Below, in pieces: positions 5,368 through 28,659 of a DNA stretch of 30,667 bases. The translations under genes were made by a program, and so were the position numbers. How positions within the stretch are numbered: the first letter of the stretch is position 1; the number at the start of each line of letters is the position of its first letter. The stretch comes from an uncultured Candidatus Saccharibacteria bacterium (lineage in GTDB: Bacteria > Patescibacteriota > Minisyncoccia > Minisyncoccales > MHMH01). A model generated the notes under the pieces. It was given only the letters and a program-made list of their open reading frames with translations. It made no database searches and was not told the origin of the DNA. Location: the NCBI GenBank assembly GCA_964486395.1, contig CAZALP010000001.1, positions 1 through 30,667 of the forward strand, read 5' to 3'.

Positions 5368-6065
5368 GCACTTTATATGTTGTCGGCACTCCCATCGGGA
5401 ACCTTCATGATATTTCAGCAAGAGCCCTCGACGTTCTCAGAAACGTCGATTTAATTTTATGCGAAGACACCAGGGTGACCGCCAGATTGCTGGAACACTA
5501 TCAAATCAAAACCCCCACTTTAAGTTATCACCAGCATTCAAAACTAAAGAAAGTAGAAAACGTAATTCAGTTCCTGAAAGAGGGGAAAGATTTAGCTTTG
5601 GTTTCGGATGCGGGCACTCCGAGCATTTCCGATCCCGGCTCAAAGCTGATTGAGAAAATAATTGAAGAGAAATTGACTTCGGTTAAAATCACATCTGTGC
5701 CCGGCCCTTCAGCTCTTACAACGGCAGCTTCTGTTTCCGGATTTCCCATGGATAAATTTTTGTTTCTCGGTTTCCCGCCTGCAAAAAAGAAGAGAAAGAA
5801 ATTTTTCGAAGAAGCGGCCAACTCAAGATATCCCGTAATTTTCTATGAATCTCCCTATCGGATAATAAAAACTTTAAAAGAATTACAGGAGGCGTTGATT
5901 TATAGCGATCGTCATAAATCAGCAACATTGGTGGTTTGCCGCGAACTAACCAAAAAATTCGAAGCGATTTACCGAGGCAAAGTTGAGGAGGTGATAAAAA
6001 AAATAGAAAGAGATAAAATAAAAGGAGAGTTTGTTATAGTTGTTAGCTCTAAATATGAAAAATAA
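5364..6065 (+). CDS. rsmI: 16S rRNA (cytidine1402-2'-O)-methyltransferase
   Basis: LYVVGTPIGNL, CEDTR, SDAGTPSISDPG, PGPSA, YESPYR and RELTKKFE motifs; ATGA overlap with the upstream gene. Confidence 0.95.
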   Translation: MSTLYVVGTPIGNLHDISARALDVLRNVDLILCEDTRVTARLLEHYQIKTPTLSYHQHSKLKKVENVIQFLKEGKDLALVSDAGTPSISDPGSKLIEKIIEEKLTSVKITSVPGPSALTTAASVSGFPMDKFLFLGFPPAKKKRKKFFEEAANSRYPVIFYESPYRIIKTLKELQEALIYSDRHKSATLVVCRELTKKFEAIYRGKVEEVIKKIERDKIKGEFVIVVSSKYEK

Positions 6066-7049: not shown

Positions 7050-8501
7050 ATGACAAAGAAAAAGTTTTATATCTCAACTAGTATAGCTTATACTAATGCT
7101 CCTCCGCATATAGGTTATGCATTAGAGATAATCCAGGCAGATGTGATAGCTAGATATCGGCGGCTTTTGGGCGAAGATGTTTTCTTTTTGACCGGAACTG
7201 ATGAGCATGGGAGAAAGGTGGTAGAAGCAGCTAAAGAGGCAGGGAAAAGCCCTAAAGATTTTACGGACTTGCTTGCAAAAAAATTCAAAAAATTGACCGA
7301 AACTTTAAATATCTCTAATGACGATTTTATTCGCACTACCGATCAAATAAAACATTGGCCATCAGTAAGGAAAGTTTGGTTGGCATTAAGGGAAAACGGC
7401 GATATTTACAAGAAGAAATACAAGGGGTTTTATTGTGTCGGTTGCGAGGCATTTATTACAAAAAAGGATTTGGAAAGCGGTAAATGCAGAATTCACCAAA
7501 AAGAACCTGAAATAGTTGAAGAAGAAAATTATTTTTTCCGGCTTTCCAAATATTCAAAAAAGATAGAAGAGGTTATCAAAAAAGACAAAATTAGAATTAT
7601 TCCCGAGAGCCGAAAGAATGAGATGTTGAGTTTTCTCAGGCAAGGCTTGGAAGACATTAGTTTTTCTCGGCCTAGAAAAGACTTAAAGTGGGGGATACCA
7701 GTACCGGATGATAAAAGTCAGACGATATATGTCTGGGGAGACGCTTTAACCAATTATATTTCAGCTCTTGGTTATTCAAAAAATAGCAAAAAATTTAAAA
7801 AGTTTTGGCCAGCTGATGTTCATTGCATTGGCAAAGATATTCAAAAGTTCCATTGTTTGATTTGGCCGGGAATGTTGTTGTCTTTAGGTTTAGACTTGCC
7901 GAAAAATATTCTGGTTCACGGATTCATCACTGTTAATGGGCAGAAAATGTCAAAGAGCTTGGGGAATGTTATTGATCCTTTTGAATTGGTTGAGAAATAC
8001 GGAATGGATCCCGTGAGATATTTTCTCTTGCGGGAGATTCCGCCGACGGAAGATGGAGACTTTACGCGCGAAAAATTTGAGGGGCGCTATAATTCTGACT
8101 TGGCAAAAGGGCTCGGGAATTTGGTTGCCAGAGTAATAAAAATGGCGCAAATTTCTAATTTCCAATTTTTAATTTCCAATAAATTTTCAAAAACCCACTG
8201 TTCCCACACAGCCAAATTCAAAGCGGAAATAAACAAAACCTGGAAAGAATACCATCGTCTCTTTAACGAGTTTCGGTTTAATGAGGTATTAATGGCGGTT
8301 TGGGAATTGATCGGTTTTTGCGACAAATATATTGAGCAAAAGAAGCCGTGGGAAACCAAGGACAAGAAAGTTATCGGTGATTTATTGCTCGCCCTGAATC
8401 ATATTGCTGAAATGTTAAGGCCGTTTTTGCCGGAAACTTCGGAAAAAATATTGAAACAAATAAAAAATAAAAAAAGTCAGTCTTTATTTCCAAGGATTTA
8501 A
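7050..8501 (+). CDS. metG: Methionine--tRNA ligase (short form, no C-terminal tRNA-binding domain)
   Basis: YTNAPPHIGY (HIGH-like), FLTGTDEHG, knuckle CVGC...CRIH, WGIPVP, YVWGDAL and KMSKS. Confidence 0.97.
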   Translation: MTKKKFYISTSIAYTNAPPHIGYALEIIQADVIARYRRLLGEDVFFLTGTDEHGRKVVEAAKEAGKSPKDFTDLLAKKFKKLTETLNISNDDFIRTTDQIKHWPSVRKVWLALRENGDIYKKKYKGFYCVGCEAFITKKDLESGKCRIHQKEPEIVEEENYFFRLSKYSKKIEEVIKKDKIRIIPESRKNEMLSFLRQGLEDISFSRPRKDLKWGIPVPDDKSQTIYVWGDALTNYISALGYSKNSKKFKKFWPADVHCIGKDIQKFHCLIWPGMLLSLGLDLPKNILVHGFITVNGQKMSKSLGNVIDPFELVEKYGMDPVRYFLLREIPPTEDGDFTREKFEGRYNSDLAKGLGNLVARVIKMAQISNFQFLISNKFSKTHCSHTAKFKAEINKTWKEYHRLFNEFRFNEVLMAVWELIGFCDKYIEQKKPWETKDKKVIGDLLLALNHIAEMLRPFLPETSEKILKQIKNKKSQSLFPRI

Positions 8502-9409
8502 TGTTGATCGATACTCACGCGCATTTGAATTTTAGCGCTTTTAGGAACGATGTCGACGAAGTGATCCGCCGGTCTTTAGGTAATGAATTTTTTGCGAAAG
8601 CAAAAAATTACAGGAGTGGTCGGGAGAGTTGGGTATCCTCCCGCGATGGAAAACCAGCGAGCCGAAGGCGAGCGCCAGAAACCGAAGGCGTCTGGGGAGC
8701 AAAGCGGGAGCGGAACGACGTTTGGATGATTAATGTCGGCTCTCAATTGACTACCAGCAAAAGAGCTGTAAAAATCGCCGAGCAATACGAAAAAGGAGTT
8801 TATGCCGCTGTTGGCCTGCACCCCATTTATGCCCAAGAAAAATTTCAATATGAAAAGTTCAAGGAGCTGGCAAAATCAAAAAAAGTGGTAGCCATTGGAG
8901 AAATCGGCCTGGATTATGAGCCAGAATATGCCCCGTTCGCAGAAAAACAGAAGGAAGTTTTCCGTCAGCAAATGAATATGGCCATAGAATTGGACCTGCC
9001 CGTGATTTTTCACTGTCGCAAAGCGCACGATGATCTTATAGAAGTTTTGTTACAATGGAACAATAATTATACACCTGTAGATTTATTACACCGGGGAGTG
9101 GTTCATTGCTTTACCGGGAAATGGAGCCAGGCAGAAAAATTCTTAGGGATGGGGATGTATTTGGGTTTTAACGGGATAATATTTAAGCTGAATTTGGATG
9201 AAATTATCAAAAAAGTTCCTCTGGATAGAATTTTGATTGAAACCGATTGTCCTTTTTTGACCCCGCCTCAAAAAAGAGGTCGGAACGAGCCGGCCTATGT
9301 AAAATATGTGGCAGAGAAAATTGCTAAAATCAAGAATTTGGATTATAAAGAAATAGCCAAGATTACCACCCAAAATGCCAAAGAGCTGTTTAAAATTATG
9401 GAGAGATAG
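8501..9409 (+). CDS. tatD: TatD family metallo-hydrolase/DNase with an N-terminal insertion of about 44 aa
   Basis: DTHAH, GLHP, GEIGLD, FHCR, HCF, ETDCP and RNEP motifs are intact; extra segment at residues 29-72. Confidence 0.93.
   Translation: MLIDTHAHLNFSAFRNDVDEVIRRSLGNEFFAKAKNYRSGRESWVSSRDGKPASRRRAPETEGVWGAKRERNDVWMINVGSQLTTSKRAVKIAEQYEKGVYAAVGLHPIYAQEKFQYEKFKELAKSKKVVAIGEIGLDYEPEYAPFAEKQKEVFRQQMNMAIELDLPVIFHCRKAHDDLIEVLLQWNNNYTPVDLLHRGVVHCFTGKWSQAEKFLGMGMYLGFNGIIFKLNLDEIIKKVPLDRILIETDCPFLTPPQKRGRNEPAYVKYVAEKIAKIKNLDYKEIAKITTQNAKELFKIMER
8585..8716. mobile_element. In-frame 132-bp structured insertion in tatD (REP/MITE-like)
   Basis: 10-bp perfect stem with GAAA loop (8586-8609), CGGGAG/CTCCCG stem, CCAGA/TCTGG stem and CCGAAGGCG twice; the length is a multiple of 3. 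Boundaries are estimated from the TatD consensus. Confidence 0.6.
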
Positions 9410-10740: not shown

Positions 10741-10762
10741 ATTAAACGCTCGGCGATAAGAT

Positions 10763-10907
10763 TCGGAATTAGTCGCACGAAAAACCGCAGTCGCTCGTCC
10801 AGCGCGCTCGCGCTGCTCGAACCTCGGGCTCGCTCTTCTGCCAGACACTTTGGCAGAAACCACGCCCGCTCGCCCTGCGGAACGTTTTTCTTAGCGACTG
10901 ATTCCGA
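10763..10907. ncRNA. GC-rich multi-branched structured element between glyA and folD (ncRNA or REP-like; function unknown)
   Basis: 14-bp closing stem (10763-10776/10894-10907), 7-bp GAAAAAC/GTTTTTC stem, CGCAG/CTGCG stem, two inner hairpins and five GCTCG motifs. Confidence 0.5.
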
Positions 10908-10918
10908 GTTCACTAATT

Positions 10919-11691: not shown

Positions 11692-14190
<2,499 letters not shown>

Positions 14191-23981: not shown

Positions 23982-24450
23982 TTGGGCCGGACGATGGAAT
24001 TGGCTGGATGCTTTGGGTATTTTTTCGGCCAAATATTTAATTTTCATACTGGTAGCCCTAGTGATTTTCATTTTTTGGAGAAAACGAAAAGTTATCATCG
24101 GCACCTTTTTAGCGGCAGTTTTGGCCAAATTTGTGATTGTTGATTTGATTCGTTGGATTTGGCCCAAGGCCAGACCATTTGTTGAAAATAATGTTCATTT
24201 GCTTATCAATAAAATTAACCAATCGGCTTTTCCCTCGGGCCATGCCGCTTTTGCCTTCGCTTTATCGGCAGTTGTTTATTTTTATAATAAAAAGGCCGGC
24301 ATTTTATTTTTTGTTGCCAGCTTTTTGATTGCTGTTTCCCGAGTTTTTGTTGGCGTTCATTGGCCATCAGACATTGTGGCTGGAGCCGGAATCGGAATTT
24401 TTTCCGGCTGGCTGGTTATAAGGATTTTCAAAAAGAAAAACTCGAAATAA
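23950..24450 (+). CDS. PAP2 family phosphatase (undecaprenyl-pyrophosphate phosphatase-like)
   Basis: KARPF, FPSGHA and SRVFVGVHWPSD catalytic motifs. Confidence 0.92.
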   Translation: MDYLLFQKINSWAGRWNWLDALGIFSAKYLIFILVALVIFIFWRKRKVIIGTFLAAVLAKFVIVDLIRWIWPKARPFVENNVHLLINKINQSAFPSGHAAFAFALSAVVYFYNKKAGILFFVASFLIAVSRVFVGVHWPSDIVAGAGIGIFSGWLVIRIFKKKNSK

Positions 24451-24477
24451 CAACTATGGTCTTGATTTCGAGTTTTT
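24436..24477. repeat. 42-bp palindrome, copy 1 (terminator-like)
   Basis: 13-bp perfect arms AAAAACTCGAAAT/ATTTCGAGTTTTT overlapping the PAP2 stop codon; a second copy lies at 28618-28659. Confidence 0.85.
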
Positions 24478-24728: not shown

Positions 24729-25502
24729 ATGACCCGTATTATCGCCATAGCGAACCAGAAAGGAGGCGTGGGGAAGAGTTCTGTTGCAACTAATTTGCCT
24801 GTTTTTTTAAGTGCCACGGGCAAAAGAGTTTTGCTGGTTGATATGGACTCTCAAGCCAACGCCACTTTATCTTTGGGGATTGCTCCGCGCCGTCTGCCTC
24901 TTTCTATATATCACGCTTTGATGGGTCAAATTAGCCCTTCGGCTATTATCAGGAAAAGCCCGTTTTTTAATTACGAAATTATGCCGGCTTCCCCGGATTT
25001 GGCGGGAGCCACAGTAGAATTGGTTAATTCGGAAGCCAGAGAATTCAAGCTCCGCCAGATTTTAGAAAAAGTAAAAGAACCCTACGATTTTATCTTCATT
25101 GATTCTCCTCCCAGTTTGGGCTTGCTGACCATAAACGCTCTTTGTGCCGCCGATGAAGTTTTGATACCCGTGCAGTGCGAGTACTTGGCTTTGGAAGGCT
25201 TGAAACAACTCCTCAGTACCATTAATTTAGTCAAAGATAACTTAAAGCCGGATTTGAGGATTGCCGGCGCCCTTTTGACAATGTATAGTAGAAATAACAA
25301 GGTTTCTCGGGAAGTAGCCAAAGAAGTGAGGAGAAATTTTCCAGGTTACGTTTTTGATACCGTCATTCCTAGAACTATAGTATTGGCGGAAGCCCCAAAA
25401 TTCGGAAAAACTATTTTGCAATACGCTCCCGCTTCCATGGCCGTAAAGGCTTATCGGGAGCTGGCAGAGGAGTTGATAAATTTAAATAATAAAAAAACAT
25501 GA
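24729..25502 (+). CDS. parA: ParA/Soj chromosome partitioning ATPase
   Basis: Deviant Walker A NQKGGVGKS, DMDSQANAT, IDSPPSLG, PVQCEYLALEG and LAEAP. Confidence 0.96.
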   Translation: MTRIIAIANQKGGVGKSSVATNLPVFLSATGKRVLLVDMDSQANATLSLGIAPRRLPLSIYHALMGQISPSAIIRKSPFFNYEIMPASPDLAGATVELVNSEAREFKLRQILEKVKEPYDFIFIDSPPSLGLLTINALCAADEVLIPVQCEYLALEGLKQLLSTINLVKDNLKPDLRIAGALLTMYSRNNKVSREVAKEVRRNFPGYVFDTVIPRTIVLAEAPKFGKTILQYAPASMAVKAYRELAEELINLNNKKT

Positions 25503-26377
25503 AGAACAACACATTTGGCAAAGGTTTGGAATCGCTGATTCCCAAAAAATCAGAAAAAAATAAAAAAGATTCCGAGCAGAAACAAGAACCTATATTTTAT
25601 ATTGAGCTTGAGAAAATAAAACCCAATCCTTACCAACCAAGAAAAAACTTTGATCAGGCGGGCTTGGAAGCTTTGGCAGATTCCGTCAAAGAATACGGCA
25701 TTCTGCAGCCCTTGCTGGTGAGTCGCATTGAAAAGGAGGGCGGGAACGAATATCAGCTGGTGGCAGGAGAAAGGAGGCTGTTGGCGGCCAAGATGGTGGG
25801 CTTGACCCAAATACCGGTAATTATCAGGGAGCCTACCGAGCAGGAGAAATTGGAGGTTTCCTTAATAGAGAATGTCCAGCGTTTGGATTTGAATCCGATG
25901 GAAAAAGCCGAGGCTTATAAAAGACTGCAAGACGAATTCAAATTTCTGCAAAAAGACATTGCTAAACTGGCCGGCAAAAGCCGGGAAGCAGTAGCCAACA
26001 CCATGCGCCTTCTTGATTTGCCTGACGAAATAAAGCAGGCCCTAAGAGAAGAAAAAATTTCAGAAGGTCATGCCAGGGCTATGTTAGCAGTAGAAGATTC
26101 CCAAAAACAAAAAACCCTTTTTGCAAGAGTTGTAAGGGATGGGCTTAATGTTAGAGAAACGGAGAGTTTAACCCAGAAGCTGAATATTTGGAAGCCCGTT
26201 AAAAAGCAAATTTCCGCAGCTTCCAAAGAAGTGAAGACCCTGGAGGAAAAACTAAGGGACATTTTGAAGATTAAAAATCTCCGATTAAGAATGGAAGCGG
26301 GCCGCCCCAAATTGACCATCTTTTTCAACTCCAAAAAAGAACTGGAGAGCTTATTAAAGAAAATTAAATCTTCCTGA
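25499..26377 (+). CDS. parB: ParB/Spo0J partitioning protein
   Basis: PNPYQPRK, GILQPLLV, CTP-binding VAGERR, ENVQRLDLNP, HTH GKSREAVANTMRLL and SEGHARA. Confidence 0.96.
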   Translation: MKNNTFGKGLESLIPKKSEKNKKDSEQKQEPIFYIELEKIKPNPYQPRKNFDQAGLEALADSVKEYGILQPLLVSRIEKEGGNEYQLVAGERRLLAAKMVGLTQIPVIIREPTEQEKLEVSLIENVQRLDLNPMEKAEAYKRLQDEFKFLQKDIAKLAGKSREAVANTMRLLDLPDEIKQALREEKISEGHARAMLAVEDSQKQKTLFARVVRDGLNVRETESLTQKLNIWKPVKKQISAASKEVKTLEEKLRDILKIKNLRLRMEAGRPKLTIFFNSKKELESLLKKIKSS

Positions 26378-28617: not shown

Positions 28618-28659
28618 AAAAACTCGAAATAACAACCATGGTTGCGATTTCGAGTTTTT
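28618..28659. repeat. 42-bp palindrome, copy 2 (probable topA terminator)
   Basis: Same 13-bp arms as 24436-24477, inner CAACCATGGTTG palindrome; begins in the topA stop codon and ends in a T tract on the minus strand. Confidence 0.85.

Follow-up and report, generated by a model that had tools for sequence, protein, structure and literature searches.

What makes two aminoacyl-tRNA synthetase genes of one bacterium share a short GC-rich motif, in both orientations, beside arrays of 7-nucleotide (nt) repeats? The question is raised by a stretch of 30,667 nt, apparently the entire contig CAZALP010000001.1, from a Candidatus Nealsonbacteria-like member of the Patescibacteria (candidate phyla radiation, CPR); it is referred to here as the window. 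An earlier note on this DNA had located the motif at three sites in metG and leuS and had read it as a mobile end, a recombination scar or a protein-binding site. The three sites are indeed there, in both orientations, and what they share is a GC-rich unit of 18 nt, CCCACTGTTCNCACACAG, which is present in four copies over these sites and whose 5' half is the motif first noticed. We consider it reasonably probable that this unit is a non-autonomous, DNA-level mobile or selfish mini-repeat residing in a subset of Patescibacteria genomes.

An 18-nt unit recurs in metG and leuS

The host genes, the copies and their AT-rich surroundings are arranged in the window as follows (arrays called by Tandem Repeats Finder are marked TRF):

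7050–8501, plus strand: metG, host gene, methionyl-tRNA synthetase (MetRS; phmmer against the PDB, MetRS 2csx, E = 1e-127)
8150–8193, plus strand: AT-rich heptamer array (AATTTCC, 4.4 copies) and A-run ending at the insertion point (TRF, period 7 at 8150–8180)
8194–8211, plus strand: intact 18-nt unit of metG, CCCACTGTTCCCACACAG, an in-frame 18-nt insert read as THCSHT
11698–14190, plus strand: leuS, host gene, leucyl-tRNA synthetase (LeuRS; phmmer against the PDB, LeuRS 1h3n, E = 7e-250)
12383–12400, plus strand: left AT-rich, heptamer-like flank of LeuRS site 1, ACATAAAATTTTCAATTT
12401–12427, minus strand: GC-rich insert of LeuRS site 1, read as LGVNSGH and containing one inverted degenerate unit
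12428–12441, plus strand: right AT-rich flank of LeuRS site 1, AATTTTCAATACCT
13634–13653, plus strand: left heptamer array of LeuRS site 2 (AAAAATT), with A-run and G at the insertion point (TRF)
13654–13689, plus strand: 36-nt insert of LeuRS site 2, CCCACTGTTCACCAACTGTTCTCACACAGCACACAG, two rearranged units (CCCACTGTTCAC / CAACTGTTCTCACACAG / CACACAG)
13690–13722, plus strand: right heptamer array of LeuRS site 2 (AAAAATT, 4.7 copies; TRF)

Written as a 20-mer, the metG site spans 8194–8213 on the plus strand (CCCACTGTTCCCACACAGCC) and falls in the loop that follows helix 1 of the anticodon-binding domain. The inverted unit of LeuRS site 1 occupies 12403–12420 on the minus strand (CCCACTGTTCACACCCAA, 2 mismatches), in a beta-hairpin loop just N-terminal of the editing domain. 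An AlphaFold model of LeuRS, which is poor (mean predicted local distance difference test score of 56), would put two strands around site 1 and two helices around site 2, the latter in a low-confidence stretch.

The unit opens with CCCA, followed by a 4-bp hairpin (CTGT/ACAG) whose 6-nt loop holds the variable base. The description of the motif as not palindromic must be slightly amended for this 4-bp inverted repeat. Eighteen nucleotides amount to six codons, and the sense frames of the unit are free of stops. The window copies are decaying, with 1–3 mismatches and one rearrangement. The organism is present in sediment and vent metagenomes (runs X1–X3), and a population contig of public run X2 additionally carries a C>T change at window position 8203, the tenth base of the metG unit, which shows that the unit is not invariant at the strain level.

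Recurrence of a 10-mer means little by itself: the window has 372 different 10-mers with at least three occurrences each, and in 30 kb neither a triple 10-mer nor a double 13-mer is remarkable on its own. The complete unit behaves differently. With a consensus defined from genomes outside the window, CCCACTGTTCNCACACAG has four matches at up to three mismatches against 0.02 expected, well above chance, and none of 100 shuffled sequences reaches four; the 20-mer is moreover found in relatives and in dozens of unrelated genes. These counts rule out chance, as well as local slippage or convergence in low-complexity loops, as a scarcely credible origin. A hidden Markov model built from 37 units (external and internal), a check that the earlier note had proposed, picks out these four units and no other sequence in the window. 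An assembly or adaptor artefact is ruled out by identical inserts in independent JGI, NCBI, ENA and Logan assemblies, and a protein-level motif by the use of different frames and both strands. The claim that conservation lies at the DNA level was thus well founded: the encoded peptides differ (the leuS site at 12403 reads GVNSG), and several frames on both strands are in use. A protein search with a PTVxTQ-repeat peptide, one of the readings of the unit, gave no scoring match.

Units are gained and lost whole among close relatives

Syntenic relatives were found through their LeuRS homologues, namely L082 and L083 (80% identical), L081 (77%) and L127 (77%); among species-representative genomes the closest MetRS is 74% identical. 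All three sites are filled or empty among these close orthologues, which bears out the association with insertions and deletions that the earlier note had made a touchstone, and all three are empty in L127. By DNA alignment, the metG copy is identical in L082, L083 and L099; L081 has an 18-nt gap in its place and L127 also lacks the unit, and the heptamer array is found without it in L081 and in many other MetRS genes. LeuRS site 2 shows a clean 36-nt gap in L082, between ...TTAAAAA[G/T] and AAAAAAT..., with both heptamer arrays already present; L127 is likewise empty here, and L081 has one unit. At LeuRS site 1, the insert is absent from 22 of the 26 aligned LeuRS sequences, and in L127 the heptamer array runs unbroken (AAAGTTCAAAGTTCAAAG^CTCAAAGTTC). 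This position is filled in three different ways: L081 has a single unit in sense orientation, the window a single unit that is inverted and decayed, and L082 a GC-richer variant of 37 nt.

Gain or loss occurs in exact multiples of 18 nt, as one to four head-to-tail units, and leaves no target duplication. The junctions of the 18- and 36-nt inserts are clean, with none of the target-site duplication typical of miniature inverted-repeat transposable elements (MITEs). The direct repeats that flank the inserts pre-exist in the empty sites, so that no duplication accompanied insertion; AATTTTCAAT and AAATTAAAAA, the candidates for such a duplication, are ruled out because both are present there. 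The proposal of a mobile end also has to give way in one respect: no transposase or recombinase was seen next to the coding copies, and what is inserted is not the end of a larger transposon but the 18-nt unit in full, once or several times.

A mobile, copy-and-paste origin fits, and the odd variant of 36 or 37 nt at two non-orthologous sites speaks for it. The 37-nt variant at site 1 of L082 and the insert at site 2 of the window have in common an odd, rearranged 12+17+7 structure and are identical at 27 of 37 positions, with the next best match at 22 of 37 (75 kb, both strands). One idiosyncratic variant at two non-orthologous places points to copying between loci, not to independent slippage. 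The two variants differ at 10 positions, by nine transitions (5 A/G, 4 C/T) and one A/C change. Adenine mutagenesis from a template repeat to a variable repeat, as in diversity-generating retroelements, is ruled out because these nine changes are ordinary transitions and not adenine-specific; a crude screen of the loci examined found no reverse transcriptase for such a reading either.

Inserts of other families also occur in LeuRS. Two homologues, P0008 and P0016 (alignment A1, columns 1–30 and 317–338), have a duplicated N-terminus (KYNPQKI ... MAYNPQKI) with an insert, DPAPEQSSVRGKKK, between the copies, and P0016 has another insert of 22 residues, STRAELGAGLVPHRNEVSGAGF.

An A-run, rather than the heptamer array, marks the insertion point

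Read in the orientation of the motif, nearly all independent copies are preceded by A at positions -5 to -2 and by G or A at -1 (AAAA[G/A]^CCCAC...). The rule is independent of the strand of the gene and of the presence of a heptamer array: the orientation of the unit is fixed relative to the A-run and goes either way relative to the gene. It extends to GC-rich contexts free of arrays, such as a hairpin loop (GAAACG^CCCAG) and a site within a repeat element of L081 (GGAAAG^...^CAGCGAGC).

TRF calls period-7 arrays beside the metG unit (8150–8180) and on both sides of the leuS insert at 13654 (13634–13652 and 13691–13722); the flanks of the leuS unit at 12403 look 7-periodic but are not called. 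The statement that the motif is always nested in such arrays is thus partly right, applying to metG and to the leuS insert at 13654, and in other lineages it is the A-run that is constant. Similarly, the idea that the motif targets or travels with the arrays is right in so far as it recurs there, with LeuRS site 1 filled in three ways and empty in a fourth lineage; since the unit also follows A-runs in GC-rich hairpin loops and in Lys-rich linkers, the arrays are not required. We infer that they are recurrent insertion hot spots, offering many A-runs within permissive loops.

Period 7 is the commonest tandem-repeat period in about 1.3 Mb of related, coding-dense loci (L001–L083): 262 arrays have it, compared with 194 for period 9 and 102 for period 6. 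DNA-level conservation of the MetRS array, (AATTTYC)4AATAAATTTTCAAAT, extends over lineages whose proteins are about 60% identical, and all its units vary in concert (AATTTCC, AATTTTC, AATTTCG). Other, unrelated GC-rich inserts, mostly palindromic, interrupt it in L008, L002, L033, L003 and L071 (one of them, CCCTACGGGGAGTCGC..GCGAC, is found in both L008 and L002); several families of insert share this MetRS loop as a general hot spot. The window has a further AT-rich period-7 array at 12529–12549. A simple search for GC islands flanked by AT-rich DNA gave 6123 hits and was set aside as far too permissive, and a search for GC-rich k-mers recurring across loci recovered only conserved coding segments.

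The unit is dispersed over essential genes of CPR lineages

In L081, the unit (0–1 mismatch) stands at four places in 22 kb: both LeuRS sites, which carry the exact 20-mer, a loop of TsaD, and the spacer between the serine hydroxymethyltransferase gene (SHMT) and folD. Its density is about one per 6–8 kb in both L081 and the window. L127 has no copy, and none was found at up to three mismatches in 80 other related loci (1.25 Mb), where about 3 would be expected by chance.

A scan of public metagenomes for exact matches to CCNACTGTTCNCACACAGCC returned 43 loci. About 36 are low in GC and CPR-like, with several contigs coming from 0.1-µm groundwater filtrates; the other approximately 7 (39–64% GC, non-CPR-like contexts, no A-run) look like chance. 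Across lineages of 30–45% GC, 19 of 20 positions are identical. A phage origin was rejected: searches of viral contigs gave no match and then one, which is probably due to chance (45% GC context, no A-run).

Most copies lie within open reading frames (ORFs); the metagenome loci hold about 20 distinct coding sites. From a reading of the translations, the hosts identified include the following, and further ones exist:

ArgRS: loop after the first helix of the anticodon-binding domain, a structural spot equivalent in MetRS and LeuRS
FtsZ: C-terminal linker
RpoA: tail
Ribosomal protein L22: tail
KsgA: coding copy
RlmE-like methyltransferase: coding copy
VirD4-like ATPase: tail
PilO-like protein: two copies
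GT39 glycosyltransferase: antisense copy

The copies sit where six extra codons per unit are harmless, in surface loops, domain linkers and the tails of housekeeping proteins, and no transposase or recombinase stands beside them. All three sense frames are in use (PTVxTQ, HCSHTA and PLFxHS), and about 5 coding sites are antisense, giving a sense-to-antisense ratio of about 15:5. Tandem arrays of two to four head-to-tail units, always in the same phase, occur in L089/L109, L092, L095, L097, L108 and L111; the units inside one array differ at the N position, and in L089, L095, L097 and L111 they encode PTVxTQ in linkers and tails. The unit is thus a dispersed, multi-copy repeat inserted in frame, at permissive positions, into genes that remain intact, as are the palindromic elements of Rickettsia discussed below.

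A structured intergenic repeat hosts the unit

The unit is also found in a structured intergenic repeat of about 110–190 nt, where it forms internal loops and the tip of a hairpin (CGGGGAAAC-RCCCA-CUGU-UCNCAC-ACAG-CCCA-GUUUCCCCG). The outer stem of this element covaries (GGGGAAAC/GUUUCCCC versus GGGAAAAC/GUUUUCCC), as does its 5' hairpin (GAAACC/GGUUUC); the CUGU/ACAG stem is predicted in 9 of 9 aligned elements, and the L085 copy has a folding z of -3.5. In at least seven diverged lineages the unit occupies the equivalent loop. The element matches no Rfam family: searches of the window, L081 and eight element-bearing loci with the Rfam 15 covariance models matched only tRNAs. It is present in many copies and in either orientation, with neighbours that include fusA-tuf, the region upstream of rpsL, nusG-rplK, ftsH and pilB. 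A 7-kb Type III restriction-modification island (Mod, NYN, Res) lies between two inverted copies, at 5829 (+) of L085 and 4047 (-) of L112, two halves of contig Ga0210044_10004579; L110 is a further locus of this finding. The island lies in the opposite orientation in another sample, which indicates an inversion polymorphism through the intergenic repeats.

Not every copy of the element contains the unit. The loop is empty in L100 (GGGGAAACC-GAAG-GGUUUCCCC) and in another copy in L111, and a circularly permuted copy in L081 has the unit elsewhere in the element and in the opposite orientation, reading GGAAAG^unit^CAGCGAGC where other lineages read GGAAAA^CAGCGAGC (empty). A related copy lies within a gene of the window:

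8501–9409: tatD, with a 141-nt, 47-codon in-frame insertion (NEFFAKAKNYRSGRESWVSS...KRERNDV) at 8582–8722

This insertion, absent from the L082 and L081 orthologues, is a member of the intergenic-element family placed on the minus strand, antisense to the gene (nhmmer, E = 5.5e-5), and shows that the genome of the window tolerates in-frame repeats of the Rickettsia kind. The copies with an empty loop (L100, L111 and tatD) weaken the case for the intergenic element as the source of the unit; it is a host, and not necessarily the origin.

Several further features were observed. The SHMT-folD spacer of the window (10741–10918) forms a long and very stable GC-rich hairpin (-76.5 kcal/mol, z = -5.8), conserved in L082 and with no Rfam match; the L081 spacer contains the permuted intergenic repeat with its 18-nt unit. 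In L098 (about 700–1330, nusG-rplK) a 27-codon duplicate of the 5' end of rplK is separated by the intergenic repeat from the full gene, whose apparent start ATG is followed by an in-frame TAG. An ORF of L093 (268–1551), a DDE transposase read from its translation as IS481-like, lies 70 nt from a unit-bearing intergenic repeat; it adjoins the element and not a coding unit, no insertion sequence (IS) related to the unit was found, and the proximity may be coincidental. The window also has near-identical terminator-like hairpins (AAAAACTCGAAAT...ATTTCGAGTTTTT) at 24436–24477 and 28618–28659, one after a PAP2 gene and the other between relA/spoT and topA. Its parA-parB pair (24729–26377) adjoins a switch in gene orientation from plus to minus at about 26.3 kb, where the cumulative GC skew flattens, and the region may lie near the replication origin or terminus.

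How might the unit move?

A trans-acting activity would copy and paste the unit, either as a single-stranded hairpin or from a template, by a mechanism closest to that of HUH enzymes (IS200/IS605-RAYT type) acting on hairpins like those of repetitive extragenic palindromes (REPs). The likeness would lie in a tetranucleotide followed by a hairpin, the lack of duplication, an orientation fixed by a short target and a mild strand bias. By this analogy, an enzyme of the HUH class (REP-associated tyrosine transposase, RAYT, or IS200/IS605) might be what moves the unit, a tentative and rather doubtful assignment. Tandem arrays would grow by slippage or by re-insertion at the ACAG^CCCA junction, which would be favoured because this end of the unit resembles the target.

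Several observations weigh against a mobile mini-repeat. No transposase, HUH enzyme or reverse transcriptase was found in the loci examined, in what was a crude screen of short flanks, and phmmer with an IS200 TnpA query found nothing in 1.5 Mb of loci. To our knowledge, an 18-nt element with a 4-bp stem is far below the size of any HUH transposase substrate. No insertion or deletion variants were seen at the three sites within populations, in assembled contigs from four runs (where rare variants are invisible). The preference for the sense orientation, about 15 to 5, is weakly significant and could be produced by selection against stop codons. Finally, the metagenome scan accepted exact matches only, and the apparent conservation of the 20-mer across lineages is inflated in part by this ascertainment.

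Ectopic gene conversion is a rival explanation, in which a unit with no insertion machinery of its own would pass between heptamer arrays by recombination over short homologies, perhaps after natural transformation with fragments, the similar AT-rich arrays serving as homology arms. Within the Nealsonbacteria clade the flanks are alike (TCCAAAAA/unit/CCAAATTCC at both leuS sites of L081, with a close version at metG of the window), similar AAAATTCAAAA flanks surround both copies of the 36/37-nt variant, and no target duplication is left, as expected for such exchange. Yet copies stand without array or flank similarity in GC-rich hairpin loops and in linkers of FtsZ, the PilO-like protein and RpoA, and homology arms cannot explain the inverted unit within the forward-oriented array of LeuRS site 1. 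The arms, moreover, measure 10–20 nt, at or below the usual minimum for RecA-dependent exchange, and we regard this origin as unlikely. It is quite unlikely, too, that the 18–20-mer is a functional cis element kept for its recognition by a protein or an RNA, for instance as a DNA-uptake signal in these naturally competent bacteria or as an RNA-binding hairpin. The identity of 19 of 20 positions across lineages, the confinement of the lone variable base to the hairpin loop, the placement of the unit in one loop of an element with covarying stems in at least seven diverged lineages, and the prevalence of the sense orientation would all suit selection on function. Apart from the inflation just mentioned, however, the window copies decay and the metG unit carries a single-nucleotide polymorphism in one population; the unit occurs about once per 6–8 kb and not at all in 1.25 Mb of relatives, compared with about one uptake sequence per kb in known systems; every copy is an insertion or deletion in a variable loop and not a site derived by point mutation; and the intergenic element exists with an empty loop.

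By analogy with telomerase or DRT2, a reverse transcriptase or other polymerase might instead extend the 3' end of broken or nicked DNA, with the loop of the intergenic element as template; repeated rounds would yield in-phase tandem 18-mers. Bounded by a 9-bp stem, the loop has a suggestive form (CCCA + 14 nt + CCCA), one 18-nt unit followed by a repeat of 4 nt that would allow realignment; the arrays are always in phase and exact multiples of 18; and the bases GAAAC[G/A] and CCCAG beside the unit in the element agree with those beside coding copies, AAA[A/C]G to the left and CC(C)A to the right. The CC on the right is partly forced by the search pattern, though; the crude screen found no reverse transcriptase near any copy, and elements with an empty loop imply that the element may be a mere host. 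Such templated repeat addition seems very unlikely. A bolder proposal, which we hold to be improbable, is that the unit represents a new class of ultra-small element, written into A-tracts by a single-strand DNA enzyme or by loop copying of the telomerase/DRT2 kind, with the heptamer arrays as landing pads; the template would then be the hairpin loop of a CPR small RNA.

Implications for CPR proteins

Proteins of the CPR are noted for unexplained extra segments. The 18-nt unit and the related element of about 140 nt, both of which enter essential genes in frame and at recurring hot spots, provide a DNA-level source for some of them, and advise caution, as such loops may be the scars of selfish DNA rather than adaptive domains. 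The unit is also a sharp marker for strain and lineage tracking. If the insertion activity were identified, no smaller mobile unit would be known from bacteria, and the system might serve to make short, targeted insertions in frame; and if the unit were truly a new ultra-small element, it would represent a previously unknown route by which CPR bacteria remodel the loops of essential proteins.

Comparison with known systems

The kind of repeat described here, selfish and in frame in a reduced, AT-rich genome, is already known from the Rickettsia palindromic elements (RPEs) and from mitochondrial GC clusters. What appears to be new is the 18-nt size, the in-phase tandem arrays, the A-run target without duplication, the CPR host range and the link with heptamer arrays. 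Searches of the literature by topic found nothing on such repeats in CPR bacteria and no paper tying Patescibacteria to uptake sequences, and the 15- to 18-mers of the unit are absent from the searchable literature.

RPEs, reportedly described by Ogata et al. in 2000, are also short dispersed repeats placed in frame in the genes of a reduced AT-rich genome and tolerated in surface regions. They are palindromes of 100–150 bp, whereas the present unit has 18 nt, a 4-bp inverted repeat, tandem arrays and a host in another phylum (CPR); it is among the smallest dispersed and apparently mobile pieces of DNA observed within coding sequence, about tenfold smaller than an RPE. The 141-nt GC-rich element within tatD is the closer analogue. 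We know of no transposase for RPEs. The GC clusters of yeast mitochondria and the 'byp' elements of Magnusiomyces are short GC-rich hairpin inserts in a very AT-rich genome, some of them coding, and polymorphic among strains; they are longer (30–55 nt), often have small target duplications and, in the case of byps, are out of frame and skipped by the ribosome. The inserts described here are all multiples of three with an open frame, and plain translation is accordingly the simplest reading.

REPs and REPINs with their RAYTs share with the unit high copy number, clusters or arrays, the lack of target duplication and orientation-specific placement. They also have a conserved tetranucleotide 5' of a short hairpin, to which the conserved CCCA of the unit, with its 4-bp stem and 6-nt loop, may correspond. 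They differ in being extragenic, about 35 nt long and beginning with GTAG, the unit being much shorter and mostly intragenic; a crude screen of the loci examined found no RAYT or TnpA gene. Unlike a MITE, the unit has only CTGT/ACAG for an inverted repeat, no parent IS that we could find and no target-site duplication. The uptake signal sequences of Pasteurellaceae and the DNA uptake sequences of Neisseriaceae are likewise short, lineage-specific, over-represented motifs in weakly conserved coding segments, and CPR bacteria are thought to depend on DNA uptake; those motifs, however, occur about once per kb, arise mainly by point mutation and form no tandem arrays, as opposed to a unit found about once per 6–8 kb and always as an insertion. 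Coding minisatellites, or variable-number tandem repeats, resemble the head-to-tail 18-nt units that encode PTVxTQ, but slippage, which accounts for changes in copy number at a single locus, leaves unexplained why about 20 unrelated genes have the unit in three frames and in both orientations. Lastly, the loop CCCA-N14-CCCA with its closing stem of 9 bp may be likened to the template of telomerase or DRT2, a terminal direct repeat bounded by a helix.

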